From contig CAUVXB020000001.1 in NCBI GenBank assembly GCA_963555825.3, forward strand, positions 32,001-96,000: a DNA stretch of 64,000 nucleotides, read 5' to 3'. Under the pieces are notes generated by a model. The model made no database searches and had not been told where the DNA came from. It saw nothing but the letters and a program-made list of their open reading frames with translations. This document shows, one piece after another, positions 926 through 48,247 of the stretch (positions are counted from its first letter, which is position 1; every line of letters begins with the position of its first letter). The position numbers and the translations under genes are program-made. This stretch comes from Alphaproteobacteria bacterium (GTDB lineage: Bacteria; Pseudomonadota; Alphaproteobacteria; JAAXGF01).

Positions 926-997
926 GGGCCCGCTCAGGAGAGCTTCGAGATAGTTATCCATCGGCGGCCTCCGAAGCGTTGCGCAGGTGTTTTGTTA

Positions 998-2385: not shown

Positions 2386-2443
2386 GATGGCGGCAGGAAT
2401 GTTGCAACAAGAAAGGAGCGAGGCCAGCCTTCTCTTCGGTTAG

Positions 2444-11133: not shown

Positions 11134-11553
11134 ATGGACCAGGACACCGTCAAACACCTCGAGCTGATCCAGGGCGTGGTCAACCGCCTGGCCAACAACT
11201 CGTTCGCCTACAAGGCCTGGGCGATCACCCTGGTGGCCGTGTTCATCCTGCTCGCCACCGCCATCGCCAGCCCGCATCTCCTGCCCATCGCGCTGATCCC
11301 GGCGCTCGGCTTCTGGGGCCTCGACGCCTACTATCTCCGGCAGCAGCGCTTGTTCCGCAAGCTCTACGACGCGGTGCGTAGCGCCGAGACCATCGCGCTC
11401 GCCGACGGCGCGTTTTCGATGGACACCACCCCCTTCGACGGCGAGGTCGCATCGTGGCTCGCCACCGCCTGCTCGAAGACCCTCCTCTGGCTCTACGCGC
11501 CGATCGCCGCCCTCATCCTGCTCGCCACCGCCATCGCGTTTGTTGGTGCTTGA
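11134..11553 (+). CDS. Small membrane protein (KHLExIQ..NSF..K.W family)
   Basis: [43 protein letters not shown]; about three TM segments. Confidence 0.75.
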
Positions 11554-27004: not shown

Positions 27005-28456
27005 CGGCGATGTCCCTATCTCTGTTGAAATTCGTGGGGCAGGCGTCGCTGGTTGATGATGCTATGCTGCCTTCATGATGGTTTCAATGGCACTGTCGGC
27101 CTGAGCCTTTCTCAAGTGTTCCTGGAGAGCATTTCGGAGGATGGGCAGCTGACGATAGGCCTTGAGGCGACGGAAGGTTTTCTGGGCCTCCAGCAGGCCG
27201 GCGGCGGTCCATCTGAGCGCCATCTCGGCGTGTCTCCAGCGTTTGACGTTGCGGGTGACCTGGCGCACCGTGCCGAGCGCGTTCTCGACGATGTTGGTGC
27301 AGGCGAGCGAGCGCCGGAGTTCGTGCGGCAGGCCGAGGCGGATGACGGTGAGGATCTCGTCCAGCCCCTCCAGGATGCTGCCCGAGACGCCCGGTTCCTC
27401 ATGCTCCAGACGCCGGGCCAGGTTGCGCAGCAGCCGTTCGGCCTTGTCTGCGTCGTCCTGGTCCCAGGCCTGACGGAGCGCCTTCTTGACGCTCGCATGC
27501 AAATGCAGGGGCAGGCGCTCGATGATGTTACGGCCCTTGTGGACCTGGCAGCGCTGGATGGCGGCGGCCACACCGAAGGTGTTGCGGATCGCTTTGCTGA
27601 GCGCCTTCGCGCCATCGACGATGAACAGCCGGGGCAGCGTCGGATCGAGCCCCCTGGCGAGGAGATTGTCGAGCAAGGCCTGGACGACGACAGTGTTCTC
27701 CGTCGCCCCCTCGACCACGGCCAGGACATGCTTGTCGCCGTTGCCATCGACGCCGATCGCCGCCACCAAGACATGGTCGCCGACATGCAGACCGTCGATC
27801 TGGATGACCAGCAGGTCGAGCTCCGAGAGGTCCGAGGCGAGCCAGGCCTTCATCTTCTTGCGCGACAGCGCCACAAAGCGCCGGGAAACGGCCGACTTCG
27901 AGGTGCCGTCGCCACGCGCTTTCGCCAGGTCGCCCTCGGGCAGACGGACCGCGCGGTGGTACTTGCGGGTCGACACGTTCAGGACCATCAGGTTGAGCGC
28001 CCACTCGAGCAACAGGTTGCCGTCGCGCAGCACCTGCCAGCTCTCCAAACCCACCTCCTTGCCAGCATGGTCGCGAACCCGTGGCCGCTGCACTTTCACG
28101 CGGCCGCCGTGGTAGCCGATCTCGCTCTGCGTATGGCCCCAGCGATAACCCCGACGGTTCCCATGGCGACGATGTCGGGCCCCGCACACGGTCGTGGCGT
28201 CCTCCTCCATCATCTCGGCCAAGGCCTCGACCCCGGCCAGGAGACAGAACCGATCCACGCTGAGACGGACTGCGTCCATCGCGTCTGCCAGCGGCGGCAT
28301 AGGAAACGAGGTGGCAAGGGCTTTCGGGCTACTGGAACTACGGATATTCTTTCCCATGGTGTCGTTCTCCCTCTTGGGTTTGCAGCACCCGGAGCCTAAC
28401 GGCTCCAGGAGAGCGACACCTACCTCAACTTTTCAACATCGACCGGGACATCTCCG
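27005..28456 (-). mobile_element. IS256 family insertion sequence
   Basis: IR CGGCGATGTCCCTATCTCTGTTGAAA / TTTCAACATCGACCGGGACATCTCCG; imperfect 8-bp flanks TATTATT(T/C). Confidence 0.88.
27062..28357 (-). CDS. IS256 (mutator-type) transposase
   Basis: VSTRKY, SKSAVSR, IQIDG, IVDGAKAL, QRCQVHK, TNIVEN. Confidence 0.93.
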   Translation of the reverse strand: MGKNIRSSSSPKALATSFPMPPLADAMDAVRLSVDRFCLLAGVEALAEMMEEDATTVCGARHRRHGNRRGYRWGHTQSEIGYHGGRVKVQRPRVRDHAGKEVGLESWQVLRDGNLLLEWALNLMVLNVSTRKYHRAVRLPEGDLAKARGDGTSKSAVSRRFVALSRKKMKAWLASDLSELDLLVIQIDGLHVGDHVLVAAIGVDGNGDKHVLAVVEGATENTVVVQALLDNLLARGLDPTLPRLFIVDGAKALSKAIRNTFGVAAAIQRCQVHKGRNIIERLPLHLHASVKKALRQAWDQDDADKAERLLRNLARRLEHEEPGVSGSILEGLDEILTVIRLGLPHELRRSLACTNIVENALGTVRQVTRNVKRWRHAEMALRWTAAGLLEAQKTFRRLKAYRQLPILRNALQEHLRKAQADSAIETIMKAA

Positions 28457-28470
28457 TATTATTCTTTTAA

Positions 28471-28703
28471 CCGATATTTCCCAGATAGCATTCGTATCGG
28501 AGCAAATCGTAGGCGAACCCGAACACCGATGGAAGGAATTTCGCTCTGCGGTCATTCGGCAGCCCCGATTTGATGATTTGGCCGTTGTTGGAAGCCCATT
28601 TGGCCAAATTTGTCGTCATCCAGACACACCTCTCCTGTCTTTTCCACCTTGCCGTCAATTTCCTCGGCCTACGCCGGGACGGGGCTTCGGCGTAGATCAT
28701 CAA
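28471..28703 (-). mobile_element. Old IS1380 3'-end remnant (continues at 45202-45230)
   Basis: Collinear with the end of the intact IS1380 at 38539-38770 (IR CCGA(T/C)ATT(T/C)CCCAG; DDLRRSPVPA*). Confidence 0.8.
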
Positions 28704-28884
28704 CCCGCATTTCCCAAGTATCGTCGATATTCAGTGCGGCGAGAAGGCGATTCTGCTATAAGAATCATGAAGTTGTAGCATACATGGAGCGGCGGATATG
28801 GCACACCCGATGGGTGAATCGAAACCGGGGTGCCTTCGGGTCGTTTTTGACCGTCGATTGAAGCTTGAATTCCACGGTTCCAAG
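28704..28884 (+). mobile_element. IS1380 left end with transposase N-terminal stub
   Basis: IR CCCGCATTTCCCAAG; MAHPMGESKPGCLRVVFDRRLKLEFHGSK is cut by IS21. Confidence 0.85.
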
Positions 28885-29002
28885 TGAGAACGGCAGAGCA
28901 ATAATCCCCCACTGAAGCGGCCGGTCGATCCGGCTGCGGCGGACCAAAATGGGACCGCGTATAGCCTTCTGTCAGGGTTGCTCTGACTGGAAGGCGGGGG
29001 GG

Positions 29003-30502
29003 ATGTATCGGGTGGAGTTGTACGCACGGGTTCGGCGGGCGTGTCATGTCGAGGGGATGAGCACCCGCGAGGCCTCGCGGGTGTTTGGTGTAGACCGCAA
29101 GACGGTCCGTAAGATGCTGTCGTTCTCGGTGCCGCCAGGGTATCGCCGAAGCGCGCCGCCGAGGCGGCCAAAGCTGGGTCCGTTCACGGGAATCATCGAT
29201 CGGATCTTGGAAGACGATCGGACCAGCCACCGCAAGCAACGGCACACTGCGAAGCGCATCTTCGACCGCCTCCGGGACGAGTACGGTTTCACGGGCGGCT
29301 ACACCATCGTGAAGGACTACGTTCGTGAGCAGGGGCTTCGGTCGCGTGAGGTGTTCGTGCCACTCTCCCATTCCCCCGGTCACGCCCAGGCGGACTTCGG
29401 CGAAGCGATGGCGGTGATCGGCGGCGCGTTACGGAAGATCCACTTCCTTGCCTTCGACCTTCCCCACAGTGATGGTTGCTTTGTTGCGGCCTATCCGGCG
29501 GAGACGACCGAAGCATTCTGCGATGGCCACAACGCGGCGTTTGCCTTCTTCGGCGGCGTCCCCCGATCCATCCTGTACGACAACACCAAGCTGGCGGTTG
29601 CCCGGATCCTGGGCGATGGGAAGCGGCAGCGAACGCGCGTCTTCACGGAGCTTCAGTCCCACTATCTGTTCGAGGACAGGTTCGGCCGGCCGGGCAAGGG
29701 CAACGACAAGGGCAAGGTCGAGGGACTGGTCGGCTTCATCCGGCGGAACTTCCTGGTCCCCGTCCCGCGTGCCGAGAGCTTCGCGGCCCTCAACGATGCT
29801 CTCGCCGAACAGTGCCGCCGGCGCCAGGCGGCGCGGCTGCGGGGCCACAAGGAGACCATCGGCGAGCGTCTCGAGCGGGATCGTCAAGTTCTCTTGCCAT
29901 TGCCGCCTGCTCCCTATGATGCCTGCGATAAGCGCCCTGGACGGGCGAGTTCGCTGTCGCTGGTGCGTTACCGCAGCAACGACTATTCCGTGCCCGTGGC
30001 CTACGGCCACCGTGAGGTGCTCATCCGGGGCTACGTCGATGAGGTGGTGATCAGCTGCGGGGCCGAGGTGATCGCCCGGCACCGCCGGTCCTACGACAGC
30101 GAGGACCTGATCTTCGACCCGCTGCATTACCTGCCCTTGATCGAGCAGAAGATCGGCGCCCTCGACCAGGCCGCGCCATTGGCGGGCTGGGACCTGCCCG
30201 AGGCCTTCATCACTCTGCGGCGGCTCCTCGAAGCTCGTATGGGCAAGGCAGGCAAGCGCGAGTACGTCCAGGTGCTCCGTCTACTGGAGACCTTCCGGCT
30301 CGAGGAGGTCGAGGGTGCGGTCGGCGACGCCCTGCGGCTCGGCGCAATCGGCTTTGATGCGGTGAAGCACCTGGTACTGTGCCGCATCGAGCGGCGGCCG
30401 CCCAGGCTCAACCTCGACGTCTATCCGTATCTGCCGCGCGCCCGGGTCGCGATGACGTCCGCCAAGTCGTACATGAGCCTGCTGTCGGGGCTCGGCGCAT
30501 GA
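29003..30502 (+). CDS. istA: IS21 transposase
   Basis: HAQADFG, YDNTK, GNDKGKVEG, NDYSVP. Confidence 0.95.
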   Translation: MYRVELYARVRRACHVEGMSTREASRVFGVDRKTVRKMLSFSVPPGYRRSAPPRRPKLGPFTGIIDRILEDDRTSHRKQRHTAKRIFDRLRDEYGFTGGYTIVKDYVREQGLRSREVFVPLSHSPGHAQADFGEAMAVIGGALRKIHFLAFDLPHSDGCFVAAYPAETTEAFCDGHNAAFAFFGGVPRSILYDNTKLAVARILGDGKRQRTRVFTELQSHYLFEDRFGRPGKGNDKGKVEGLVGFIRRNFLVPVPRAESFAALNDALAEQCRRRQAARLRGHKETIGERLERDRQVLLPLPPAPYDACDKRPGRASSLSLVRYRSNDYSVPVAYGHREVLIRGYVDEVVISCGAEVIARHRRSYDSEDLIFDPLHYLPLIEQKIGALDQAAPLAGWDLPEAFITLRRLLEARMGKAGKREYVQVLRLLETFRLEEVEGAVGDALRLGAIGFDAVKHLVLCRIERRPPRLNLDVYPYLPRARVAMTSAKSYMSLLSGLGA

Positions 30503-31263
30503 CCGACACACCGCAAGTGCTGCTCGCCCACCACCTCAAGACGCTGAAGCTGCCGACCTTCCTGCGCGAGTACGACAAGATCGCCCGGCAGTGCGCCTCG
30601 GAAGGCGTCGATCACGTCCGCTACCTGTTGAGACTCGCCGAGCTCGAGCTGATCGACCGCGAGCGCCGCATGGTCGAGCGGCGCATCAAGGCGGCGCGCT
30701 TCCCCGTGGTCAAGAGCCTCGACAGCTTCGACTTCAAGGTCATCCCCTCGCTCAACAAGGCGCTGGTCCTGGAGCTGGCCCGCTGCGAGTACATCGAGCG
30801 CCGCGAGAACCTCATCGCGCTCGGCAACAGTGGGACCGGCAAGACCCACATCGCCCTCGGTCTCGGCCTGGCGGCCTGCCAGAAGGGCCTCTCGGTCGGC
30901 TTCATCACCGCCGCCGCGCTGGTCCACGAACTCATCGAGGCCCGCGATGACAAGCAGCTGCTGAGGTTCCAGAAGAAGCTCGCCACCTACAAGCTTCTGA
31001 TCGTCGACGAACTCGGCTTCGTGCCGCTGTCGAAGACCGGCGCCGAGCTGTTGTTCGAGGTGTTCAGCCAACGCTACGAGCGGGGCTCGACCCTGGTCAC
31101 CACCAATCTGCCCTTCGACGAATGGACCGAGGTGTTCGGCTCCGAGCGCCTCACCGGCGCGCTCCTCGATCGCCTCACCCACCACGTCAACATCCTCGAG
31201 ATGAACGGTGACAGCTACAGGCTCAACCAGAGCCGCAGGCGTCAAACCCCGACTGCTAACTGA
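30499..31263 (+). CDS. istB: IS21 helper AAA+ ATPase
   Basis: GNSGTGKTH, LIVDELG, LLDRLTHH, GDSYRL. Confidence 0.95.
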   Translation: MTDTPQVLLAHHLKTLKLPTFLREYDKIARQCASEGVDHVRYLLRLAELELIDRERRMVERRIKAARFPVVKSLDSFDFKVIPSLNKALVLELARCEYIERRENLIALGNSGTGKTHIALGLGLAACQKGLSVGFITAAALVHELIEARDDKQLLRFQKKLATYKLLIVDELGFVPLSKTGAELLFEVFSQRYERGSTLVTTNLPFDEWTEVFGSERLTGALLDRLTHHVNILEMNGDSYRLNQSRRRQTPTAN

Positions 31264-31454
31264 ACCGACCACCCAGCCCACGCTTGACCCCGTGGGCCCA
31301 CAGGTCCCTCCCGCGCGCGCCGCCGCGTCAGCCTGTTGAGGGCACGCCGCGTCGCGCGCGGGGCCCTCCCGTGGACTACGGGGACAAGCCCGCAGCCGCC
31401 AAGCGGTCCCTTCTTACACCGCCGAGGTGGTCCCTTTTTGCTCCGCCATTGACA

Positions 31455-31715
31455 AACTTCCTCAACAACGTCTCGGTGCCTTGGAAGCTGACCTGCGACG
31501 AGCTCATCTACTGTCATCAAGGGACCTTCCGTCTGATGTGCGACGGCGAAGCCTACGTCCTCAATCCGGGCGATATGATGCTCGTTCCCAAGGACAACGA
31601 GATCGCTTACGAGGCCGACGGCAAGTGCGTCATCTTCTACGCGGCAAGCCCCGTCGATCGGAAGCAGCGGGCGGGGATCACCGAAGTGCCGGGCATCGAT
31701 CCAGAGGACATGTGA
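31455..31715 (+). pseudogene. EutQ-like cupin, 5'-truncated by IS21
   Basis: WKLTCDELIYCHQGTFRL...LNPGDMMLVPKD cupin motifs. Confidence 0.7.
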
Positions 31716-31817: not shown

Positions 31818-33322
31818 CTATCGACCGGTTGGATCGGGCGCGCCTTCCCAAGCTTCGTAGGCGGCGGGAAAGACGTCTTCGACAGGCTCGTTTTCAGGCC
31901 AGTAATCGGCGAACCGAGCCCACGCGCGATCGGTCGAGCGGCGCACTTCGGCGAGCAGCCTTTCCTCATCCCAAACCGTGAGGCGCCCGTCTTCGACCAG
32001 CATGCGGCCTTGGACCATGACATGCTTCACCACTTCACCATCGCAGCTCTGGATCAACGCCTTGATGGGGTCGAGGAACGGCCCTGAGCGCAGTCGCCCG
32101 AAATCGCAGACGACGCGATGTCGGCCTGCGCGCCCGGCGCCAGACGGCCCAAATCGGGCCGGTCGAGCGCACGAGCGCCCGCCAGAGTGGCGGCGTCGAA
32201 GATGTCGCGTGTCGACGCGTGTTCTTGATCGTGATCGGCGACCTTGCCCATCAGCGCGGCGAACTTGAGCTCGCCAAGGATGTCTTGGGGATAGCTGTCG
32301 GTGCCGATGGCCAGGTTGACGCCGGCGTCGCGATAGCGCTGGAGCGACTCGAGGAAGAGGCCACGCCGGGCAAACACCAGCGGGCAGTGAGCGACCGTCG
32401 CACCACTCGATGCGAGCTTGGCCAGATCGTCGCCGTAGGGAAATGCGATCTGGCTGTGACCGGAGGTGTAGAGGACGTGGCCGAGCACGACCTCCGGCCC
32501 CAGAAAATCGAGATCATGCAGCATGGAGACCGGCGTGCGGCCGGTCTCACGGATCGAATCCTGGACCTCGATAATCGATTCGGCGCAATGCGTGGTAATG
32601 CCGACGCCTAAGTCCTTGGCTGCCTCCTTGGTGCGGCGCAGCAGCTCGTGGGTGGTCGCGTGGTATTCGAGCGGGACCAAGATGCCACGGAACCGGCCGC
32701 CGAATGCCCCGTCGTATTGTCGGATGAACGCGACCGCTCTCTCCAGACCCCTGAGGCCCGCTGCTTCATCCCACTGCATGCGATGGCGTCCGCCCTGGTC
32801 GAAGTAATGGTGAGCCGAGGCGTAACCGGGCGAGGTGTAGAGGCGGATACCGAGTTCGCCGGCCAACTCCACCATCGGCCCCATGCCGTCGCTCGCGGCG
32901 CCGCCACCGAGCTCGCCGCCCATGTCGACCACGGTGGTGGCGCCGCATTTCAGAAGCGACGCGAGACTGAAGCGGATACCGGCCTCCGGTGTCTCGTGGT
33001 CGTGAATGGTTGGGCCATTGACGCCCTTGGCGGTGCAGTAGTTCAGGAAGCCGGACCGGAAGAGGTCGCGACGGCCGCCGTCGAACACCATGCGATCGCC
33101 GGCATGCGCCCCGACATGACAGTGCATGTTGATGAGACCCGGTATGACGAGATCGTGTCGGGCGTCGATCTCGTTGTCTGCCTTGCCACGCCAGGTTTTG
33201 CCGACGTGCTCGATAATGTCGCCACGAACGACGACCACGCCGTCTTTGATGATGCGATGCTTCGCGCCGTCGAAACCGACGATCCAGCCACCGTGAATCA
33301 CCGTAACGTCACCGCCCGACAT
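31818..33322 (-). pseudogene. Amidohydrolase (chlorohydrolase/SsnA-like), frameshift near 32115
   Basis: PGLINMHCH, HCAES, AIGTD, GRLAPGAQADI; the C-terminus (VKHVMVQGRMLVEDG) is in another frame. Confidence 0.85.
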
Positions 33323-33446
33323 ATATCGTCTCCATGGCAAGGGTTGCGGCAGAAGATGCCAGTGAACTCGACCGCCGACCCTCCCTTAGAGTCCATCGCG
33401 CGCAGAAATGCTAGCCCGTTGGGTCGGTCACCACGGGCCGACCGCG

Positions 33447-33740
33447 CTATGCGTTGACCGGCGGCTCGTGCGGCAGTCGGCTCAGCACGTCGCGGCCGTC
33501 TTCGGTGATGACCAGCGTGTGGCCAGTCGACATCGCGACGCCGGAGTCGGCACCCGTGTACATGGCGTGCAGGAAGAACACCATGCCGGGCGCCGCGATC
33601 AGCGGGTTGCCCGAATAGAGCATCGGCGGCACGTCCATCCAGGTCGGACGGTAGGTCGCGCCCGGCGCATAGCCGCAGGCGGCAAAGCGGTGCACCGTCC
33701 GGCTCGCCTCGTCGAACACCCGGCGGTGGAGGTCAATGGG
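33447..33740 (-). pseudogene. C-terminal fragment of an M24 peptidase
   Basis: CGYAPGATYRPTWMD..PGMVFFLH..GHTLVITEDGRDVLS; pairs with the N-terminal piece at 41420-41787. Confidence 0.8.
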
Positions 33741-33743
33741 GGA

Positions 33744-36700
33744 TCACGAAACCGGACATTCCGCCGCCGGCCGTTTTTGAAGGACAACGTTGGTCGTCAC
33801 CAATTCGGGCTGATCGTCGCCGGCCAGTTCCGTAAGACCTATCTTGATGTTTAGCGGGTTGGCGCACCAAGCAGTAACAAACGCATCCTCGGCAGCGCCG
33901 CCGCTGCCTTTGGCGAGATTGAGAACGACCATGCCAGGTTGGCTGCTCCAGTCGGCGACAACATGGACGGGTATCTTGTCGTGTTCTTCGATCGTGGCGC
34001 TGAAGGCCTCCTCCACGCGGTTGAACTTGGGATAGGCGCGGCCAAGCCTGACTGGCGCCCGCAGTACGACGGGCGCGGCAAAGCCATCGATCTGATCGGT
34101 TGCGATCTGAAACTTGGCTTGGTTCGCCGCAGAATAGAAGACAACCGTCTCAGGCGCCCAAGAGAAGTACCGTCGGCCGTCGCGACTCAGCTGGTAGGAA
34201 ACCCCGACACGCAAGGCGGCGCCGTCGAATTCCGCCGCGTCGAGGTCGGTGGGCAGTGTGACTAGTGTCGCGGCCTCGAACCATTGCCCAAGAAGCCGAT
34301 TTGCGATGTCCATCTCCACCTCTGGCAGCATCTCGCCTGTGGTGGTGGTGAGTTCGACGGCGATTTTCTCGTCGCGCGCGGCCGCCGGCATCGGCGTGGC
34401 CAACTCGACCCCGCAATTTTGCCATCGCGATATTGACGAAACGGGGCAAATGAGGGCGCAAGGCGATCGCATCGGTCGCCTCGGGTGAACCGGCGCAGGG
34501 CTGCCCGTCTACGGTGTCAACGATCTCGATCGGATACCTGCCCGGTCCGAAACTCGTCCAAACGATCATCTCGGCCGGAGCCACACGGTCGGGCGTACGC
34601 GGCAGACTGTTCATGTCGAAGGTGACGGCAAGGCCGCGCATGTCTGGAAGCACCCGGAGTCCTTCGTGGCGCTTGCCGCGTAGATAGACCTCTGAACCGC
34701 GCCACAAATTTCGTCCCTTGATGAGGAATTCAATTCGGCCTGCGCAAGCGGAAACCGGATTTGGAATGACCTCGGTGATCGTTGTCGACTCGAAGCCCGA
34801 AGGCAAGAGCCCGTCAGCGATGAAACCGGTCAACGTCGCCGTTGCGCGCTGCTGCGGCCTGAGGCGCAACGAAATCTGCCGTCCACCATCCGGTTGCATG
34901 TTGTTGAGAATGCCCGTCCCTTGATGCCAGTTTCCGGCCCAAGCGGTGCGTATTTTCAACAGCATTTCTGGCCACCAGCCTGGCACCGAGACATCGGCAT
35001 AGACGGGGTGGTTGGCAGAGATTTGGCGATAGACAAGCTGGTTCTCCTCGGGTTCCAAGATCGCCTTGGGCCCGAACACGTAACCAAATCGCGCCGTGGA
35101 GTCGGCGTCCTGCGTCAAACTCTGCCGATCGGTGTAGCCGATCACCAGGGGGGTACGCTCGATGGCTTCGGCGAGTCCGACGGCGGTGCGCGACGCCGCC
35201 GCACCGGCATTGATGCCGAGACCTTGGGTCGGCAGTGTCGCCGCCAAGGAAAAGGCGAGCTGCATGGAATTCGCGGCGCTAGCCAGCGTCGACAATCGCT
35301 GGACCCGCTCGGTCGGCTGGGCCTGATAAGTATAGGGTTGCCCCCGCCAGCGGCATTCCGTGCCGTTGTGCCAAACTACGGTATCTACGAATGAACTCGG
35401 AACTGGAAGGGCTTCGATTTCCTTCCAGCAGCCAGGTGCCTGGACCCCAGCAGTCTGTGGTGCCTGATCCACAGCGGTTGAGGTGCCTTGTTCGCGAAGA
35501 TCTCGCGCCCCGTAGGCCGCTTTGGAAAGCTGCGCCGCGAGCGCCCTTAAGTCATGCGATAATTCGATTTCGCCGGCGCCGCCGTCCCGCAGCAGCTCTG
35601 ATCGATAAGAGGAAAGGAAGACCTCAATCGCGCTAAGTGACGGAAAAGTTTCAATTAGATTTTTCGACAGCGCGCCCGGATCATAGGTGATTGTTTCGCC
35701 GCTGTCGTTTTTCGCACATTTGTCACCCAACTCACGTGACATTGCCGACGCTTCCAACGCTTCGGCGATACATGGATTGTCAATTGCCTCGCGTACGATG
35801 TCTTGGTGGCCGGGGTACGTGAACAGGATCAGGTCATTCAAGCCCTTTTGTGTGTATACGGGATGTTCGAGCGGCACGTAGTCCATCAATTCATTTTGCA
35901 GCATTACCGTCTGCAATCGTTCCCATTCGACGGGATTGCCGGCGCTCTGCTCCTCGACGCCCCGGCGCATGAGGGAGACCAGCCAATCCAGGTAAAGCCG
36001 CGATACCTGGTCGGCGCGGGCTTCGGCGGACGCGATCTCGAGGTCGAGGACGCCGAACTTGTTCTTGACCGCCCCGGGCAGCACGGTCGCGGTGAACTGA
36101 AGGCGATAGAGGGCGTTTCCGTTCGCATCGTGGACATCGTCGAGCCCGACCTCGGTCAAGCGCTGGCGAATGCGGGCACGGTAGGCGTTTAGGTCCTCGA
36201 AATGCTCTTCGGGCGAAGACTCGAGGGACGACGAGCGGGCCCGCGGCCCTTTCCCGGGTTCGGGTGTCAGGCTGGCGACCAGATCGTTGGCCTTCTTCGC
36301 GGCCTCGGCCAGCCGAGTCTCGATGCTTGTGGTGTTGGGGTCGGTTATCGCCGTCGGCGTGCCCATATTCGCATTGGTCGGATTTAATGCAGCGTTCGAC
36401 GGATCGGTCTGCCGCAGCTTGTTGAGCTCGTCGATTTCGTTCTGGAGCTTGATCAGCTCGATTTCGGCGCGCGCGGATTCGATGTCCTCGCGGCGCGCGA
36501 AATCACGGCCGATTGCCGGGTTGAACGAGATACCCAGCTGCCCGGCAAACGCCTCGATCACGGAAAGATCCCGCCTGATCTGAGGCTCGAAGGTCTGCGA
36601 GACGCTTTCCTGGAGCATGAATTCGAGGTGGCGTACTTCACGCAGGCGATCGTTGATCAGCGTCTCGCGGGAAATCACTTGAGGATCGCCTACCAGAATT

Positions 36701-36846
36701 GCGGCCGCGGTCTGGGCCGATTTCTCGTCGACTTTGCCGATCGAAAAATCGGCGTAAGGGTTGTCTTCGAATACCGAGCAGGCGGTCAGCGCCACCATGG
36801 TCGCCGCGAGCAGGACGCGCCGGGCGGAATGTCCGATTGATGTCAT
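33744..36846 (-). CDS. Large (~1030 aa) lipoprotein of unknown function, one frameshift near 34420
   Basis: Lipobox ALTA-C after a signal peptide; coiled coil; IPT/TIG-like segment ITEVIPNPV..FLIKGRNL; the C-terminus continues in ORF 33744-34472; RBS GAGGGGAG. Confidence 0.7.
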
Positions 36847-37307
36847 TGTCCGTCTCCCCTCGTTAGGCAGCGTTCCCGGGCACAACGATCCTACCCGAGA
36901 GCGCTCCAATGTGTCCCAATTCGGCTGGTCATCGGTCCATCGCGGTCAGACGCGCTTCAAAATTGAGACGTCGAGGAGTTCGAGGACCTTGTTGATATCG
37001 ATCGCATAGGTCCAGTCTTCCTGCATGCGTCCCGTTCGAAGCTGTTCCTTCCATCCGCCCCAGAGCAAGGCGACGGGTCGGAAGGTCCCATCGTCCATTA
37101 CGATGAGTTTACCGCTGTCGCCATGATCGCTAAACTGTTCGTCGTTTTCCTCGTCACCGATTATGAGGTAGTCGGTGTACTTTCTCTCGTCGTCGAAATC
37201 CCACTCAGAATCGTACCAGGAATACGCGAATGCAGCGATGTGAGCTGGTCCCAGAAAATCGGACAGGGAGCTAAGGTGTATTCCACCGGCTAATGGAGGA
37301 ATACGGG

Positions 37308-37589
37308 ATGACGGCACGACGACGGTTTACGGCGAAGTTCAAGGCCCGGGTGGCGCTGGAAGCGCTGCGGGGCGACAAGACGATCCAGGAGCTCGCGGCC
37401 AAGCACAAGGTGCATCCGAACCAGGTGAGCACATGGAAGCGCCAGGCGGTGGACGGTCTTGGCGAGGTATTCTCGAACGGCGTGGACCGCGCCCGTCGGG
37501 ATCATGAATCAGAGATCCACGGCCTCCATGCCAAGATCGGTGAGCTGACGGTGGAACGGGATTTTTTGGCCGGCGGGCTCAAGCGATGA
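37308..37589 (+). CDS. IS3 transposase orfA
   Basis: RRRFTAKFKARVALEA..HPNQVSTWK; GATTTTTTG slippery site. Confidence 0.92.
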   Translation: MTARRRFTAKFKARVALEALRGDKTIQELAAKHKVHPNQVSTWKRQAVDGLGEVFSNGVDRARRDHESEIHGLHAKIGELTVERDFLAGGLKR

Positions 37590-38515
37590 GCCGGGGGGTG
37601 CGCAAGGCGATGATCAGGCGTGACGCTGCCGACCTGAGCTTGGGCCGTCAATGCCGCCTGCTTTCGATCAGCCGGTCCGCGTTCTATTACGCGCCGAAGG
37701 GCGAGAGCCCGGAGAACCTGGCGCTGATGCGCCGCATCGACGGGTTGTTCATGAAGCATCCGTTTTACGGCAGCCGTCAGATGGTCCGCCAGTTGCGGCG
37801 CGAGGGGATCGCGGTGGGCCGTCATCGGGTGCAGCGCTTGATGCGGCTGATGGGCCTCGAGGCGATCTATCAGGCGCCGAGAACCAGCACGCCGCACCCG
37901 GCGCACCGGGTTTATCCCTATCTGCTCAAGGGGTTGGCGATCGAGCGGCCCAATCGGGTCTGGTGCGCCGACATCACCTACATCCCCGTCCAGCACGGCT
38001 TCCTGTACTTGGTCGCGATCATGGACTGGGCGACCCGCCACGTTCTGTCCTGGCGGTTGTCGAACACCATGGACGCCTCTTTCTGCGTCGAGGCGCTGAA
38101 CGACGCGCTGGCCCGATACGCCACGCCGGAGATCTTCAACACCGACCAGGGCAGCCAGTTCACCAGCCTCGACTTTACCGGTGTCCTCAGGGACGTGGGT
38201 GTCGCGATCTCAATGGACGGCCGGGGCCGCTGCATGGACAACATCTTCATCGAGCGCCTCTGGCGGTCGCTCAAATACGAGGCGGTCTACCTCCACGAGC
38301 TGACCGACGGTTTTGCGGCCGAACGGGTCATCGGCGAGTGGATCGGCTTCTACAACACAGAGCGGCCCCATTCGTCCCTCGACGGTCAAACGCCGGCGGA
38401 AGCCTACGGCGCCGGGCAGCCTGTGGATATGATGGATAAGTCTGACGGCTTACCCACATCCCCACAGGCTCAACAGCAACAAAAGGATGTGATAAACAGG
38501 ATTTTGGCAGCATGA
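37586..38515 (+). CDS. IS3 transposase orfB
   Basis: WCADITY, NTDQGSQF, DNIFIERLWRSLKYE. Confidence 0.93.
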   Translation: MSRGVRKAMIRRDAADLSLGRQCRLLSISRSAFYYAPKGESPENLALMRRIDGLFMKHPFYGSRQMVRQLRREGIAVGRHRVQRLMRLMGLEAIYQAPRTSTPHPAHRVYPYLLKGLAIERPNRVWCADITYIPVQHGFLYLVAIMDWATRHVLSWRLSNTMDASFCVEALNDALARYATPEIFNTDQGSQFTSLDFTGVLRDVGVAISMDGRGRCMDNIFIERLWRSLKYEAVYLHELTDGFAAERVIGEWIGFYNTERPHSSLDGQTPAEAYGAGQPVDMMDKSDGLPTSPQAQQQQKDVINRILAA

Positions 38516-38538
38516 TCAGACAGCAGAATACACCTTAA

Positions 38539-40180
38539 CCGACATTCCCCAGATGATATCCAAATTCGCGGAAATCGTACCACGGCCCCAACTCCAAGGG
38601 AACTCTGTTCCCATTGCAGCCATCCGATGACATGATTTTGGTAATCGGCCAGCGCGTGGAAGGCCATTTGGTCGTTTCTCTTGCCATCCAGACACACCTC
38701 TCGTGTCGCAATCTCCTTGCCGTCGATTCCCTCGGCCTACGCCGGAGCGGGTCTTCGTCGTAGATCATCAATCAGGCTCAAGATTTTCTGGAACAAGCTT
38801 CTGGTGACTGCAACCTCGGCCAATTGAAATGTGACGTACCGGCCATGGCTGACAACTTTCGCACCGATCTTGACCAGCTTCTCCCTCAGCGTCGTCAGCG
38901 ACCATTGCTCCACGGCATCGGGCAACGCCAGGGTACGCATGAAGTTGCCGAGGTTATAGGCGAGTGCATGCAGCTGGAGCCGGACGGCATTGTTGCGTAA
39001 CGAACGGCATGACAGCCGCGTCCACTTGATGGCGTTCTTGCCTTCCTTGATCCATTGCTCGGCAGTGCCGCGCTGATTGTAGAACGCAACAACCCGCTCG
39101 GCAGGACGGCTCAGGTTGGTGACGATGAAGCCGACGCGGGGATACAGTTCCCCTGAGTGCCACTCCACCTTGGCGACGACCCGGCGGGGCTTCGTCCAGC
39201 TACCGGCCCGATAGCTGAAGTTCGCGTAATACCGACGAACTTCCTTCGGCGGCCGACCGACGGGGCGCTTGAGCAGGTGCGCGATGCTGTCGTGCAGCAC
39301 CTTGTTGGCCGGAAGCCGGATGGCGTACTTGAAGCCTTCCGCTTCCAGAAACTCATAAACCTCGGGCGAGGCGAAGGCGGCGTCACCACGGAAATAACGC
39401 CGGAGTGTCTTGTTCCGGTATCGAGCGACCACCGGGTCCAACACATCGCGCCATTCATGGGCGCTGTGCACGTTGCCCGGACGCAGGGCGCAACGCTCCA
39501 GATCGCCGAACTGGTTGAACACGAACAGCGGGTGATAGCACGTGCAGCCGAAGTGACCGTTGTAGGCCGTGCCCTCCTGGTCACCGTAGGTCGGGCTGAC
39601 GGAGCTGTCCATGTCGAGCACGATAATCTTCGGCGGCTTGCGCTCGTTAACCTGGTCGATCCAGATGCCCAAAAGGTCAGCGAGCGCGGCGAGGTTGTCA
39701 TTGGTGGCGAGTAACTCCGTCTCGAACCGGCCCATCTGGCTGGTCGATGCGCCGCCGCGCTCGACAGCCCTGCCGCCGACGATCCACCGCATCGCAGGAT
39801 CGCGCCCCAGCCGGTCGGCGTCGTTCACGTCCTCGTACCCGGCGAGACGACCATAGACGGATTGGCGAAGGAGACCGATGATGCCGTGCCAACCGTTCTT
39901 GCCGGTCCGGCTGTCAGCAATAACGTCACCGGCCAGCGTGGTCAGGCCGAGGGCTTCGTCCAGTTCACGATAGGCGAGCAGACCAGCGTCTGACGTGATC
40001 CGCGAACCGTGGAACTCGAACTTCAGTCTTCGGTCGAAAAACGCCCGCAGAAGCCCCCGATCCGACTCACCCTCCAGGTTCCGCATTCGACCCACCCTCC
40101 GTCTGATCTAATCCACTGATTCTTATACAGGAATCAGACGGAAACCGCATCAGATGGATCGGTCACTTGGGGAATGCGGG
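38539..40180 (-). mobile_element. IS1380 family insertion sequence (intact)
   Basis: IR CCGACATTCCCCAG / TTGGGGAATGCGGG; 5-bp TSD CTTAA at 38534-38538 and 40181-40185. Confidence 0.93.
38737..40095 (-). CDS. IS1380 transposase
   Basis: ITSDAGLL, LDMDSS, LRPGNVHSA, RGDAAF, YNQRGTAEQWIKEGK. Confidence 0.95.
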   Translation of the reverse strand: MGRMRNLEGESDRGLLRAFFDRRLKFEFHGSRITSDAGLLAYRELDEALGLTTLAGDVIADSRTGKNGWHGIIGLLRQSVYGRLAGYEDVNDADRLGRDPAMRWIVGGRAVERGGASTSQMGRFETELLATNDNLAALADLLGIWIDQVNERKPPKIIVLDMDSSVSPTYGDQEGTAYNGHFGCTCYHPLFVFNQFGDLERCALRPGNVHSAHEWRDVLDPVVARYRNKTLRRYFRGDAAFASPEVYEFLEAEGFKYAIRLPANKVLHDSIAHLLKRPVGRPPKEVRRYYANFSYRAGSWTKPRRVVAKVEWHSGELYPRVGFIVTNLSRPAERVVAFYNQRGTAEQWIKEGKNAIKWTRLSCRSLRNNAVRLQLHALAYNLGNFMRTLALPDAVEQWSLTTLREKLVKIGAKVVSHGRYVTFQLAEVAVTRSLFQKILSLIDDLRRRPAPA

Positions 40181-41419
40181 CTTAACTACGCTGCCAACCT
40201 GTCCAACAAAGTGGGACCACCTCAATGGTCCCTTTCTGGAACGATCGCGTTCTGCCTACAGCAAACACCTTTTGTCCAATGGGACCCATGGTGTCGAGGT
40301 CGAGTGGGACCGGGTCACCCAGTTCGTGATATTCCACCTCGTCCTGTTCGTTAAGCACCGGCACGCGTGGGTCTATGTCCGATATAGGCCGAGTTGGGTG
40401 CAGCGGTGCGAAGGCACAGTCTACCCGATAATCGTTCTCGGGAAGGTCCACGATGCCCGGAAAGCGGACCTCGTCTGGGAGGTATTCGAATACCTTTGAA
40501 ACTCTACCCAAGGGGACGCCGCCTCTTGTAGGAAACAAGAGCATGTCCCCCACTTCACCCGCGACGTGTTTGTTTGTGATCAGGCCAATATCACCATTGC
40601 TGGCCTGCCCAAAGCAGCCGAGCGTGCCATACCAGCCGGAACGGTGGTAGAGCTGTGCTCCGGGCGTAATGACGTCGCTCCATCCCTTTAATGACTCAAG
40701 AAGACTGATTCTGCCCGGCGTCGACAGTTGTGGAGGTCCAATGATGTCGTCAGGACCGACCACGGGGGCTTTGTAACCGGGTTGAACTCCCGTCACATCG
40801 ACAAGACCGATCTCGAAGAATTCATCCTTTTTTCCTCCCTGAACAATATCTACTGGACAATAGAGACCGTTTGGCCCTTCGAGCCTGTCCTCGATGGCTA
40901 TGCTATCGGGCAACCATTTCTTTGCGATTTTTCGCGGTACGAAGATTATTATACAGGGGTCCCCGTCACCGTTCTTGCGGCCAATGGCGCTACCCAGGTT
41001 CCCGTTAATGGACTGAATATAATCGTTATTAAGTTCTCGAATTATTAGCAATTCCCGAAGATTGTTTGCTTGCGCCATGACTGGTCCTCCCTACCAGCAT
41101 GCAACTGCCGATTCTTGTTGAAATCACCGACTGATGCATTCTTGTGATATGGCCACTTTGTCCGTAACCGTTTGTTGAGATGTCCCCGTTTGCTCGTCCA
41201 GGTCGTGATATGCGTTGGCACAACTTTCTGACGAAGACGGATTGGGTATTAAACGAATCACTCTACAACGATTTCTTTATTTTGTCGCGCCGGTTAGGGG
41301 ATCAAGATTCCATTGCCCTTCCTGCATACCGCACATCGCGTACGAAGTTCGATTTTTGCTGAGCGGCATTTGGCCTCAAGGATTGGTCTCGAAAGCAGCC
41401 CCGCATTACGGCAAGTAAT

Positions 41420-41787
41420 GAGACGATGAACTCGATGCCGATGCGCGCGCCCTCGAGGCCCTTCTCGGCGCGGATGTCGCGCAGCTCGAGCGCCGGGTTT
41501 ACGCCTTCGGCGCCGTACCAGACGCGGATGTCGGGAATGATCGAAGTCTCGCGCGCCTGCTGCACGTCGGGCCGGCGCGTCAAGAGCGTGATCGGCATCT
41601 CGTCGGCGGTCAGCACGGCGCACTGGGAGAAGACGTAGCCCGCGGTGTCGAAGCCGGTCAGGTAGTAGTGGCTCTCCCGGGCGAAGATTTACAGCGCGTC
41701 GAGGTCGCGCATCGCGTGCGCCCGCGCCCGGGCGATGCGTCTCTCGTGCTCCTCGCGCGTGAAAAACAGCACGGGCGTGGCCGCCAT
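41420..41787 (-). pseudogene. N-terminal fragment of an M24 peptidase, with an internal stop
   Basis: FTREEHERRIARAR..LDAL*IFARESHYYLTGFDTAGYVF..RIGIEF; TAA at 41689-41691. Confidence 0.8.
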
Positions 41788-44807: not shown

Positions 44808-45201
44808 CTGGAGCATTGGTCGCTGACGACTCTGCGGGCTTGAGCGGCAAAGCCGATCAAGGGTGGTCAAGATTGGTGCCAAGGTCGTCAGACACGGGCG
44901 ATACGTCACGTTCCAATTGGCCGAGGTTGCCGTGCCGAGGGAACTGTTCCGGAGAAACCTGAGCCCGATTGATGATCTACGACGAAGACCCATTCCGGCG
45001 TAGGCCGAGGAAATCGACGGCCAGGTGAAAACGACGGGAGGGGTGTGTCTGAATGGCGGAAAATCTGGGCAAATGGCCTTCCAAACGAGGACCGATCTCC
45101 AAAATCGGGCCCTCGGATGGCTGCGGAAGCGATGCCGTTCCCTTGGCGGTGGAACGGTGGTACGAATTCCACGGTTTTGGATGGCGTCTGGGGAATGTCG
45201 G
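44808..45201 (+). mobile_element. IS1380 transposase C-terminal stub and right end
   Basis: EHWSLTTLR..VKIGAKVVRHGRYVTFQLAEV; IR CTGGGGAATGTCGG ends at 45201. Confidence 0.85.
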
Positions 45202-45598
45202 TCAATACTGCTTAGGATTAACTGACGTGGTGCGGCGCGTTCGGTCGTCGAGTGACGATACGCCACCAAGGAGGGCGGACGCAGAAGTGGCGGAGGCGCT
45301 TGTCAGTCGGCCCGACCGGCTGGCGACCGGCAAGGATGGTGTCGACGATTTAGGGGGCCAGCAAAGCGAGTTGGATCCTGTGCCTAGCGTCCCTGGCGGC
45401 AAGCCCGCCGAAGCGTGCGATCTCGCGGATGAGGACAGGGCGAAAAATTTTCTTCAGAACAAACGCAATTGGGTAGAATAAGACCACTTGAGAGCATCCG
45501 GCTTGACGACCTATGGCCGCACTTATTCATGTTGCGCGAGTCTGAGGCGCGCCGGGAGCGCTAGTTGCGACACCATCTTGCATCCCGAGTAGTCCCCC

Positions 45599-48247
45599 TT
45601 GCCTGATCCCGAAAACAAAGCCAGTCCCCTTACCGCAGCCGAGAGCAACCCTGGGGACACCCCCCGAGATGTCCCCAAGGGCGCTCGCGATAACGCCAGC
45701 CCAGAACGCGTCTCGACAGATCGGGCAGCCGCCGCCCGACAATATCCCGCCGTCACCGCCGCAGACGGGGGGAAGCTAACCGCGCCATCGCAGTTTTTCT
45801 TTTTCGCAGGTGTGTTTCTTCTCACCTTGACCACTTTGATGCTTGAAATAATTCAGACACGAATTCTTTCCGTTGTCTCATGGTATTATTTCGCGTTTTT
45901 TATTATCAGCATCGCGATGTTCGGCATGACCGCCGGCGCGGTTTGGGTTTACATGCGGCACGACCGGTTCACGGAAAAGACGCTGTCTCGCGACCTCGTT
46001 TTTTCCACTACGGCGTTTGCGCTGAGTATCGCGTTGTCGCTGGCCGTGCAGATGACCTTGGTACCGACCGTGGTGAGAACCGTGACGTCGATCATCGTAT
46101 GGGTCGAACTGGCGATCTGCATGGCCGTTCCTTTCTTCTTTTCCGGCGTCGCGGTGAGCTTGGCTCTGACTCGCAGCCCCTATTCCATTGGTCGGGTGTA
46201 CGGGTTTGATCTGGCCGGGGCCGCGCTCGGCTGCTTGGGCGCGTTATTGGTGCTCAACATCACCGACGGCCCCTCGGCGATCTTGTGGACGGCGGCGATA
46301 GGCGCGGCGGCTGCCGTTGCCTTCACCAAATCGGGGATCGGCGTTGCGTCTGGTGAAGAGCCCGCGCTGATTTCTGTATTGCGGCGACCGAAGCTGGTAC
46401 TTTGCCTCCTCGCGTTCGTCGCGCTGGGTAACAGCCTGGCCGAGAATGGACTCCGGCCGCTGGCGATCAAAGGACAAATTGCATTGCCGACCGTGGCGAT
46501 CGAATTCGAAGAGTGGAACACGTTCTCACGGATTATCGCGCAGCGAACCGTCAAGAGAGAGCCGCATATGTGGGGTCCCTCGCCGATGATGCCGCAGAAC
46601 AGATGGCTGATCGATCAAAAAAAGATGACCATCGATGGACAGGCCAGCTCGAGGATGTATCGCTTCACGGAAAACGTGGAGGATATGGCGTTTCTGAAAT
46701 ACGACATAACCAACTTGGGCTATTTCCTGCCCGACCGTGAACGGGCAGCGGTGATCGGGGTCGGCGGCGGGCGAGACCTGATGTCGGCCTGGACGTTCGG
46801 CGTCCGCGACATCACCGGCGTCGAGATCAACCCGATCTTCATCAAGCTGTTGACCGGCCTGCCCGAATTCGCCGACTTCGCCGGCCTGAGCAGGCTCGGC
46901 GGAATTACACTCGTCGTTGACGAGGGGCGTAGCTGGTTCGCGCGGACCGACGAGAGCTTCGATGTCATCTTGATGAGCTTGGTCGATACCTGGGCCGCGA
47001 CCAGTGCGGGCGCGTTCTCGCTGAGCGAGAACGGCCTTTACACGTTGGAGGCATGGCGGGTCTTCCTCAATCGGCTGACGCCACGGGGTGTTTTCTCGGT
47101 TAGTCGTCACTTCGCCCCCAGCAACGTCGATGAGGCGGGCCGCTTGGTAAGCCTGGCGACGGCGACTCTGATGGACATGGGTTATACGGCCCCGCAGCGC
47201 CACATTTTTCTCGCCGCCGCGGGCAAAGTGTCTACGTTGCTGGTCTCACGGTCGCCCTATTCGTCGGCGGACCTTAAGGTCCTGGAAGACGTCGCCGATC
47301 GATACCAGTACCAAGTGTTGGTGAGCCCGACGAAGAGGCCGGCCTCGGAGGTGCTGTACAACATCGTCACGGCGCGTGACAAGGCGCAGCTCGAGCGATA
47401 CACCGCCGGCCTCGTGCTCGATCTCACGCCGCCAACCGACGAGCGGCCGTTCTTCTTCAATCAATTGCCGCCACTGCAAGCCCTCAAGGTCTTATTCAGG
47501 TCGCGAGATGCCGTCAGAGGCGAGGGGACGGCAAGCGGTAACCTCGCTGCCACGGTGGTCCTACTGCTATTGTTTCTCGTTTCGACTTGGCTCGTCGCCG
47601 CGACCATCATCATTCCGATCCTCCCGGCCATCGAAGACGTGGGCGCTCGTTTGGTCACCGGAGGCACCGGTTACTTCGTGCTCATCGGCATCGGTTTCAT
47701 GACCGTCGAGATCGGGCTGTTACAACGAATGTCTGTGTTCCTCGGGCCCCCGGTCTATTCGCTCAGCGTCGTCCTCTTCACCTTGATTCTGGTGACCGGC
47801 ATAGGGAGTTTCATCTCGGACAGGCTCCGGCTCGACAGCCCGAAGAAGTTCGCCATCTGGTGCGCCCTGACCGGTGGCTACGTCATCCTACTTCCGTTGT
47901 GGCTGCCGACTCTCCTCCTCGTCTTCGACAGTGCCAACCTTTTCAGCAGGGCGGCCCTCTGCGTCGGCGTGATTGCGCCGGCGGCGGTTCTGATGGGCGC
48001 GGGCTTCCCGACCGGCATACGACTGATCTCCGCCGTCGATCGCGGGCCGACGCCCTGGTTCTGGGCGATCAACGGCGCGACGGGCGTGCTTGCGTCGATC
48101 ATCGCCGTTGCGTGCAGCATTTCCTTCGGCATCGACGTCACCCTGCGCGTCGGCGGTGTTTGCTACCTTCTCTTGTTGCCCGCCGCGCTGACCATCGGAT
48201 TTCGCGGATCAACCGGTGCGTCGGGCCACGCGGTGGCCACAGTCTGA
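45599..48247 (+). CDS. Polytopic membrane protein with a spermidine-synthase-like SAM domain
   Basis: TM bundles flank VIGVGGGRD, GVEINP, DEGRSW, ENGLYTLEA, TDERPFFF; start uncertain. Confidence 0.85.
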   Translation: MPDPENKASPLTAAESNPGDTPRDVPKGARDNASPERVSTDRAAAARQYPAVTAADGGKLTAPSQFFFFAGVFLLTLTTLMLEIIQTRILSVVSWYYFAFFIISIAMFGMTAGAVWVYMRHDRFTEKTLSRDLVFSTTAFALSIALSLAVQMTLVPTVVRTVTSIIVWVELAICMAVPFFFSGVAVSLALTRSPYSIGRVYGFDLAGAALGCLGALLVLNITDGPSAILWTAAIGAAAAVAFTKSGIGVASGEEPALISVLRRPKLVLCLLAFVALGNSLAENGLRPLAIKGQIALPTVAIEFEEWNTFSRIIAQRTVKREPHMWGPSPMMPQNRWLIDQKKMTIDGQASSRMYRFTENVEDMAFLKYDITNLGYFLPDRERAAVIGVGGGRDLMSAWTFGVRDITGVEINPIFIKLLTGLPEFADFAGLSRLGGITLVVDEGRSWFARTDESFDVILMSLVDTWAATSAGAFSLSENGLYTLEAWRVFLNRLTPRGVFSVSRHFAPSNVDEAGRLVSLATATLMDMGYTAPQRHIFLAAAGKVSTLLVSRSPYSSADLKVLEDVADRYQYQVLVSPTKRPASEVLYNIVTARDKAQLERYTAGLVLDLTPPTDERPFFFNQLPPLQALKVLFRSRDAVRGEGTASGNLAATVVLLLLFLVSTWLVAATIIIPILPAIEDVGARLVTGGTGYFVLIGIGFMTVEIGLLQRMSVFLGPPVYSLSVVLFTLILVTGIGSFISDRLRLDSPKKFAIWCALTGGYVILLPLWLPTLLLVFDSANLFSRAALCVGVIAPAAVLMGAGFPTGIRLISAVDRGPTPWFWAINGATGVLASIIAVACSISFGIDVTLRVGGVCYLLLLPAALTIGFRGSTGASGHAVATV

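Follow-up and report, generated by a model that had tools for sequence, protein, structure and literature searches.

Does a cytoplasmic protease encoded directly upstream of a large lipoprotein act together with it, and what might the lipoprotein itself do? This question is raised by a locus in a 64,000-nucleotide stretch of alphaproteobacterial DNA (contig CAUVXB020000001.1; hereafter the window), in which a gene for a NAL1-type protease and a gene for a lipoprotein lie between two pieces of M24 peptidase sequence. A first-pass annotation, made from the sequence alone, had proposed that the two genes form a system with a protease-activated membrane effector. Our results indicate that the proposed two-gene system probably does not exist, and that the locus is best explained as a decayed foreign insert with two genes that are neighbours here and not a conserved pair. 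For the lipoprotein, we favor a different reading, namely that it is, with a probability of roughly 0.5, a stand-alone, lipid-anchored beta-barrel pore-former. All coordinates are those of the whole window, and the protease, the lipoprotein and the M24 pieces are all on the minus strand.

The lipoprotein family and its candidate membrane hairpin

The lipoprotein gene begins with an ATG at 36846, has a ribosome-binding site, and runs for ~1,030 codons to a stop at 33744. The start lies 99 bp past the protease stop, which confirmed the earlier observation of two co-oriented genes about 100 bp apart. The parts of the lipoprotein are as follows.

36778..36846, minus strand: signal peptide and lipobox (Cys23)
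36520..36555, minus strand: second alternating (beta-type) stretch, residues 98-109; one arm only, ahead of the long helices
34837..36717, minus strand: core, residues 44-670; predicted discontinuous beta-sandwich with two large helical insertions (residues ~60-243 and 278-500)
35191..35268, minus strand: candidate membrane beta-hairpin, residues 527-552, inside the P511-P566 segment
34513..34794, minus strand: IPT/TIG domain, residues 685-778
33744..34432, minus strand: 3' part, in another frame; variable tail, 30-36% identical to intact homologues

The frameshift lies between ~34432 and 34399, as located against P0001 and P0016, two homologues that are intact. The lipoprotein matched nothing in Pfam, NCBIfam or PADLOC. 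Homologues numbered 32, with identities of 32-51% and, in many cases, an intact length of 1,000-1,100 amino acids. A profile search gave 1,729 clusters (at 50% identity; the best 150 were examined) at E<=1e-3; with the cutoff at E<=1e-30 there were 848. Near-full-length members measure ~750-1,400 amino acids. The family was seen in Pseudomonadota, Planctomycetota, Nitrospirota and one deltaproteobacterial genome; its members at the loci scanned below belong to diderm environmental bacteria, intact genes are present in the cultured soil or sediment bacteria Dongia sedimenti (L008) and Bradyrhizobium hereditatis (L012), and a plasmid collection contained one match, in Vibrio. Word searches of open-access text (supplements excluded) gave no description of the family among the matches listed. 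Altogether, this is a genuine family, large and without annotation. Of 12 loci compared for G+C content (GC), 8 have a lipoprotein gene at least 4 points below its flanks, and in 4 (three of them AT-rich) the gene equals or exceeds them, a weak hint at transfer that we did not use as support. One homologue (L005, 9965-13063) is split into two open reading frames (ORFs) at the IPT domain. PDB sequence matches to helical proteins of the hemagglutinin HA2 type (E>=0.02) were discarded as noise.

Conservation was measured in a 139-row alignment. The lipobox, which the first-pass annotation had correctly recognized, ends at Cys23, and this Cys is present in 133 of the 139 rows; the lipoprotein (SpII) signal was judged from this motif and from hydrophobicity, a hydrophobic stretch preceding the Cys in 121 of the 131 rows whose length allowed scoring. 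Asp occupies position +2 after the Cys in 11 of 133 rows, and another residue does so in 122. Conservation is concentrated at residues 46-70, 206-275 and 501-640; residues 301-500 and the tail vary freely, and the tail past residue 767 ranges from 13 to 438 residues.

Strands 505-515 and 566-574 flank the segment from P511 to P566; its length is 55 residues in 132 of the 139 rows (standard deviation 0.4), and the adjoining insertion ranges from 182 to 499 residues. Within this segment, large hydrophobic residues occupy positions 528, 530, 532, 534 and 538 in 75-96% of rows and positions 543, 545, 549 and 551 in 51-83% of rows, with small residues between them in both cases, and a Pro-x-x-Gly turn separates the two alternating arms (528-538 and 543-551). 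The period-2 amplitude was 0.35 versus 0.10 for the helical period at residues 527-539, and 0.22 versus 0.02 at residues 542-552. Of the 12 helices in the structural model, only those at 89-108 and 519-537 showed a period-2 signal above the helical one; the same was true of 25 of 140 sliding helical windows, mostly weakly outside these two helices. Residues 519-563 are Ala/Gly-rich, and within them 527-552 carry 1.6 charged residues on average. As judged from sequence, the segment has the amphipathic, alternating character of a stem hairpin. The conserved residues Trp624, Trp625 and Trp636 are candidates for a membrane-facing patch. The second alternating stretch (residues 98-109) could form a second small barrel, like the CPB N-termini covered in the accessible part of one source (PMC9724662), or a third membrane strand.

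Both structural models draw the hairpin segment as helices, which argues against a hairpin. Residues 519-563 are conserved, yet their predicted local distance difference test (pLDDT) score is 60-67, and a low-scoring helical drawing despite conservation is as expected for a part that would refold. The helices could instead belong to an alpha-helical structure in the membrane, a pore or an anchor similar to glycine zippers or colicins, built from the Ala/Gly-rich stretch at 519-563; the helix-turn-helix in both models and the composition and low charge of the segment are consistent with this. However, its periodicity is 2 and not 3.6, and the language-model matches described below are to beta-pore-formers, which makes a helical pore highly unlikely in our view.

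Predicted fold of the lipoprotein core

A model of residues 1-808 (pLDDT 81.6, predicted template-modelling score 0.78) and a model of residues 44-670 (79.5 and 0.74) agree with each other. Strands were modelled at 49-58, 244-273, 505-515 and 566-661, and because the fold matches span residues 44-670, these strands are predicted to form one discontinuous beta-sandwich. Long helices were modelled at 110-147 and 172-233; a coiled coil had been noted earlier from the sequence. An IPT/TIG-like beta region, which had been noted earlier along with an Ala/Gly-rich amphipathic stretch near [sequence]..GINAGAAA, was also recovered, since residues 685-778 matched 3mqi with a Foldseek probability of 1.0 and Z scores reached 9.9. 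The structural matches of this domain include surface glycan-binding lipoproteins.

A Foldseek comparison of the lipoprotein model with pore-forming, secretin and CsgG-like folds had been suggested along with the original proposal. It succeeded for the IPT/TIG domain and gave nothing in the PDB at E<=1e-3 for the core. A BFVD search likewise returned nothing at E<=1e-3, and no gasdermin, CsgG or secretin row was present in the top-50 fold lists obtained with the 627- or 808-residue model as query. An entry containing MACPF, sMAC (7nyc), appeared at E 0.24 and was rejected as Foldseek noise.

The evidence for a hemolysin-like core comes from structural alignment and language-model features. In a wide VIA search with the core, gamma-hemolysin (Z 7.2, root-mean-square deviation (rmsd) 5.5, 156 residues aligned) and NetF (Z 6.9, rmsd 4.8, 148 aligned) gave the two longest alignments among 50 rows, with the caution that a Z below 8 may reflect only a common arrangement. 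When the top 1,000 Foldseek matches were realigned, the Epx1 prepore was first (Z 8.6, rmsd 4.6, 142 aligned). Hemolysin-family chains made up 12 of 50 rows in this realignment, 11 of them by title and counting 6u3y, which we take to be such a chain; 11 of these 12 aligned over 134-143 residues, above every other row (<=133). Furthermore, Atlas language-model features of residues 480-680 matched leukocidin clusters first (0.91, a score that is not calibrated for fragments, which limits its weight), followed by ETX/MTX2, aerolysin and monalysin; the whole protein matched one unnamed cluster at 0.81. These comparisons are suggestive of a hemolysin-like cap fold in the predicted core.

Several further results weigh against a pore-forming core. 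The first match in the wide VIA search was CLIPPER, an Ig-like adhesin domain (Z 7.8, 118 aligned), a pilin followed at Z 7.3 and nothing reached Z 8, and in the realignment an integrin scored Z 8.1. Overall, the fold scores are middling, hemolysins being tied with Ig-like adhesin domains at Z ~7, and the searches give ranges only, which do not show the hairpin at the hemolysin stem position. Core identity to hemolysins is 4-8%. HHalign against 13 natural leukocidin-family proteins gave probabilities of at most 0.2% with reversed controls scoring higher and no register, and no pore-former family was detected by Pfam at E<=10 in 27 homologues and fragments. The Atlas leukocidin match shares 154 of 256 features, versus 170 typical of true members.

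Such results would suit a surface adhesin or envelope scaffold, with an Ig-like core as in pilins and cohesins, an Ala/Gly segment that serves helical packing or oligomerization, and a protease that is unrelated. The Z scores of CLIPPER, pilin, cohesin and integrin domains equal or exceed those of hemolysins, the IPT/TIG matches extend to glycan-binding surface proteins, the models are helical at 519-563, and a sequence link to pore-formers is absent by both Pfam and HHalign. Against an adhesin, the segment has a strictly period-2 pattern and a fixed length, hemolysins account for the longest alignments in each of the two VIA searches, and the language-model features favor beta-pore-formers. 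We therefore consider an adhesin rather unlikely, and infer pore formation as the preferred reading. The membrane-effector part of the earlier proposal is thus supported by the hairpin periodicity, the hemolysin-like fold matches and the language-model features; its protease-activation part was not supported by the linkage results given below.

Members of the alpha-hemolysin family are soluble, secreted monomers of ~300 amino acids, with a topology of four strands, a hairpin and five strands that would fit the order of elements in the lipoprotein. [quoted passage not shown] The lipoprotein resembles this family (Hla, Luk, NetB/NetF, CPB, Epx1; PF07968) in its sandwich, which aligns over 130-156 residues at Z 6.1-8.6, and in having one such hairpin, here a sequence pattern. 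It differs in that no sequence homology was detectable by Pfam or HHalign, and in being lipid-anchored and ~750-1,400 amino acids long, with two helical insertions and an IPT/TIG domain. It also occurs in diderm environmental bacteria, whereas plasmid matches to LukF-PV came from Bacillus, Clostridium, Enterococcus or Staphylococcus in 34 of 34 records.

MACPF/CDC proteins have two hairpins. According to the portions of two sources that were available, BSAPs are lipoproteins of the cell surface that combine a MACPF core with a receptor domain at the C-terminus (PMC12853789), CDCLs have SpII signals, activation by surface proteases and an immunity lipoprotein (PMC11169675), and both are a precedent for pore-formers that are lipoproteins. 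The lipoprotein shares with them its signal, a conserved pore-type core (here a candidate) and a variable C-terminal part. It differs in having no MACPF or CDC domain by sequence (Pfam E<=1 and E<=10) and one clear hairpin, and in occurring in other phyla. The closest likeness of the lipoprotein is to the hemolysin family, with the addition of the layout seen in the Bacteroidales lipoprotein toxins; by sequence it belongs to neither. CsgG-type channels are lipoproteins that form a beta-barrel from hairpins on oligomerization, as the lipoprotein would. However, it has no CsgG match in Pfam and is much larger, and a Pfam scan of 99 selected proteins, 97 from the neighborhoods of the loci, showed no curli or secretion genes.

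Under the pore-former reading, the lipoprotein would be exported by Sec, lipidated at the lipobox Cys, for which the signal is seen in the sequence, and then probably sorted to the outer membrane. Under the Lol sorting rules, Asp at +2 bears on the destination of a lipoprotein, and an outer-membrane destination is suggested because 122 of 133 rows have no Asp there. The monomer would have a beta-sandwich resembling the hemolysin cap, with two helical insertions and with residues 519-563 stowed as helices. Subunits would then assemble into a ring, in which residues 527-552 of each would refold into one amphipathic beta-hairpin to build the barrel; this step is proposed because of the period-2 pattern and the fixed segment length. 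By analogy with BSAPs, the IPT/TIG domain and the variable tail might be the binding end. The barrel may be formed in the membrane of a competitor, as an antibacterial weapon, although we regard this as doubtful; a weapon would usually need a conserved immunity gene, and none was seen at the scanned loci, which weighs against it and would also set the lipoprotein apart from BSAPs and CDCLs. A barrel that acts as a channel in the outer membrane of the producing cell itself seems unlikely.

The protease, the insert and the evidence on linkage

On the minus strand, betA is followed by the M24 5' piece, a 49%-GC spacer, the protease, the lipoprotein and the M24 3' piece. The features outside the lipoprotein are as follows, the insertion sequence (IS) families having been named from Pfam transposase domains and end sequences.

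41422..41787, minus strand: M24 (Xaa-Pro peptidase / DoeA-like) 5' piece, matching approximately residues 10-130 of a 398-amino-acid homologue
41691-41689, minus strand: in-frame stop of the M24 5' piece
41079..41421: left arm of the insert, low-GC (49%), non-coding
40225..41078, minus strand: NAL1-type trypsin-like serine protease, 5' part; NAL1_N, catalytic His and Asp; ATG at 41078
37241..40224, plus strand: IS3-family element in the protease gene, 1,337 bp net; imperfect terminal repeats, 3-bp CAT duplication
37293-37589 and 37586-38515, plus strand: IS3-family orfA and orfB
38539..40180, minus strand: IS1380-family element nested near one IS3 end, 1,642 bp; 5-bp duplication
40095-38737, minus strand: IS1380 transposase
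36946..37237, minus strand: NAL1-type protease, 3' part; catalytic Ser in GDSG
33447..33734, minus strand: M24 peptidase 3' piece, residues 305-394 of 398-amino-acid Xaa-Pro peptidase homologues

The N-terminal part of the protease matched PF25608 (NAL1_N, E 3e-18) and PF25819 (Nal1_C, E 4e-10), and the C-terminal part matched PF25819 (E 1e-13). Without the IS block the gene has 381 codons, and most full-length homologues measure 375-412 amino acids. A homology search retrieved 66 protease homologues, and a profile of 58 of them matched rice NAL1 structures at E 1e-62 (PDB 7y77). NAL1-type serine proteases are hexamers, and six-chain entries were present among the PDB matches of the profile. 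The catalytic triad was conserved in the 58 rows (His 58/58, Asp 58/58, Ser 57/58), the sole gap being the N-terminal piece from the window, whose Ser sits in the C-terminal piece. A signal-like N-terminus was found in none of the 58. Homology shows that the window protease belongs, as a bacterial representative, to the NAL1 family, whose members are cytoplasmic trypsin-like serine proteases, as had been read from the sequence in the first place. It shares both Pfam domains, the triad and the strong structure match with plant NAL1 and differs in being bacterial. The plant protein degrades a TOPLESS-like corepressor, as stated in the excerpt consulted (PMC12915138). The literature searches described above gave no study of bacterial NAL1 proteases among the matches listed, and the protease had no match among plasmids or phages and none in PADLOC. 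Among the homologues, P0094, P0095 and P0096 are ~490 amino acids long with a C-terminal extension of ~100, and P0079, P0080, P0085 and P0089 have 319 amino acids and no Nal1_C match.

Both genes are broken, as the earlier reading had it: the protease is split by the IS3 and IS1380 elements, and the lipoprotein is frameshifted. The IS insertion appears to be late because a homologue that is 99% identical to the window protease, P0033, has no IS, although it ends early in another frame. The decay had been taken as a mark of a costly system. However, the adjoining M24 gene has a stop, a nearby amidohydrolase gene is frameshifted and the window has at least 6 transposase loci; because neighboring metabolic genes are broken too, the decay is no sign of cost.

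Insertion into one M24 gene whose middle is missing had also been proposed. The two pieces and the gap, ~174 codons relative to 398-amino-acid Xaa-Pro peptidases, were found as described, and it is likely, short of proof, that they derive from a single gene. The matches of the pieces are mostly rhizobial. Two source genes are possible because a Terrarubrum plasmid (L015, 6097-13448) carries two tandem paralogues of this M24 subfamily, flanking an ABC transporter operon, and the N-terminal piece is about equally similar to both (65.5 and 66.3% identity). The insert has a GC of 49-60%, compared with 68-69% in the M24 pieces and ~65% in the window. We looked for a target duplication and for terminal or inverted repeats at the insert junctions and found none, and ~10 bp separate the lipoprotein stop from the right junction; for these reasons, the insert may be the leftover of a larger island. 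No sigma-70 consensus site was found in the left arm (41079-41421).

The proposed pairing predicted that the two genes would be conserved as neighbors. We examined 14 other lipoprotein loci, 13 from one genome scan and one from a plasmid search, with ~10 kb of upstream sequence available at 11 of them and less at L004, L007 and L013. An unfiltered search of their six-frame ORFs with the NAL1 profile gave nothing at any of the 14 (best E 6), so that the expected linkage was not borne out. In a quick tree of 34 rows, which had Shimodaira-Hasegawa-like approximate likelihood-ratio support only, left out L007 and most homologues and was used solely to define the clade, the window lipoprotein belonged to a well-supported clade with L002, L003, L004 and L005; L002, L003 and L005, all with full upstream flanks, have no NAL1 protease. 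A trypsin-motif scan of 3,285 ORFs gave 12 motif matches and one plausible protease gene, which we take from its motif to be HtrA-like, ~7 kb from the lipoprotein gene in L011. In an indirect check, the contigs of 32 lipoprotein homologues (23 of at least 6 kb) were compared with those of the 66 protease homologues, and 0 of 32 were equal in nucleotide size; the only common size, 36,833, was that of P0033, P0227 and P0229, near-identical (97-100%) copies of the window locus with other indels. The pairing was seen in this lineage only, the two-gene system is not supported, and the lipoprotein family mostly stands alone. Linkage was tested from the lipoprotein side at 14 loci among >800 clusters, a sample size that tempers this result.

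The neighbors of the lipoprotein genes vary by locus and include metabolic genes, transposases, a type II-A retron (L002) and a CHAP-domain protein (L012); the families in common are one small pair together with widespread families, among them integrase, ABC, SDR and enoyl-CoA hydratase. The retron (L002, 5845-7742, plus strand; NDT effector and reverse transcriptase) lies 2.2 kb upstream of the lipoprotein homologue and is the sole clearly recognized defence system among the scanned neighbors. Several loci have an adjoining gene with a signal-like N-terminus, and only L005 and L007 share one: these small signal-like proteins (L005 9228-9935 and L007 1774-2214) are 34% identical, adjoin the lipoprotein gene and are candidates for a partner or immunity gene.

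These results bear directly on the proposal that the NAL1 protease activates the adjoining lipoprotein, which would serve as an effector in conflict or defence in the manner of protease-gasdermin pairs. Bacterial gasdermins (bGSDMs) are short, have an N-terminal lipidated Cys, are activated by loss of ~20 C-terminal residues and often lie beside a protease, according to the available part of their description (PMC9612521). The window likewise has a protease gene beside a candidate beta-pore-former with an N-terminal lipidated Cys; the genes are co-oriented, with no minus-strand terminator-like site in the 99 bp between them, and have one insert and one near-identical sister contig in common. 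The lipoprotein appears pore-like, and CDCL lipoprotein toxins require proteolytic activation, as stated in the accessible part of PMC11169675. However, the lipoprotein is exported and ~1,030 amino acids long, and neither the conserved adjacency (0 of 14 loci) nor the common compartment of bGSDM systems was found. Of the lipoproteins, 121 of 131 had a signal-like N-terminus, compared with 0 of 58 for the proteases, which would place the two proteins in different compartments; from sequence, the protease looks cytoplasmic and the lipoprotein exported, whereas the activators of CDCLs are surface lipoproteins in that same partial account (PMC11169675). The only plausible trypsin-type gene at the scanned loci is the distant HtrA-like one, the contig sizes do not coincide, and PADLOC matches neither gene. 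We conclude that a protease-activated pair is very improbable. It is also scarcely probable that the lipoprotein is a pore-former that the NAL1 protease, in this lineage, additionally activates.

Other features of the window and significance

Several other genes in the window are of note. The split amidohydrolase (31818-33340, minus strand) is of the chlorohydrolase family and extends over two frames (profile positions 4-403 and 405-488). A 139-amino-acid protein (11134-11550, plus strand) matches the PADLOC candidate defence model PDC-M50A at E 1.8e-41 and is followed by a TPR protein (11656-12579), both between uvrA and ssb/gyrA. An NLR-like protein with NB-ARC/STAND and TPR regions (21401-23653, minus strand) has a weak Pfam NB-ARC match (E 1.8e-5) and no PADLOC match. 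An 882-amino-acid protein (45599-48247, plus strand) has hydrophobic ends and no Pfam match; its central Gly-rich motif is reminiscent of spermidine-synthase-like methyltransferases. A second M24 peptidase (2-961, minus strand; PF00557, PF01321) is cut by the window edge. The IS load is heavy at 1628-3869, 27065-31260, 37241-40224, ~28470-28860 and 44850-45480, which comprise transposase loci and stretches with ORF translations similar to the IS1380 end, and a cupin gene (31284-31712) has apparently lost its 5' end at an IS21-type element.

The bacterial NAL1 proteases are closely related to a gene for yield in rice. For the lipoprotein family, we tentatively propose a large undescribed class of diderm, lipid-anchored pore-formers with an alpha-hemolysin-like cap and stem and >800 clusters. 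With similar reserve, we suggest that this class may be the hemolysin-fold counterpart of the Bacteroidales MACPF/CDC lipoprotein toxins or a new self-inserting outer-membrane channel. Testing the pore claim would cost little, since cultured bacteria carry intact genes and the hairpin prediction is precise. Should members of the family form beta-barrels, then hundreds of environmental Gram-negative lineages would have, in lipid-anchored form, a fold known above all from toxins of Gram-positive bacteria, which would hint at the origin of the fold, as an antibacterial weapon or an envelope channel.

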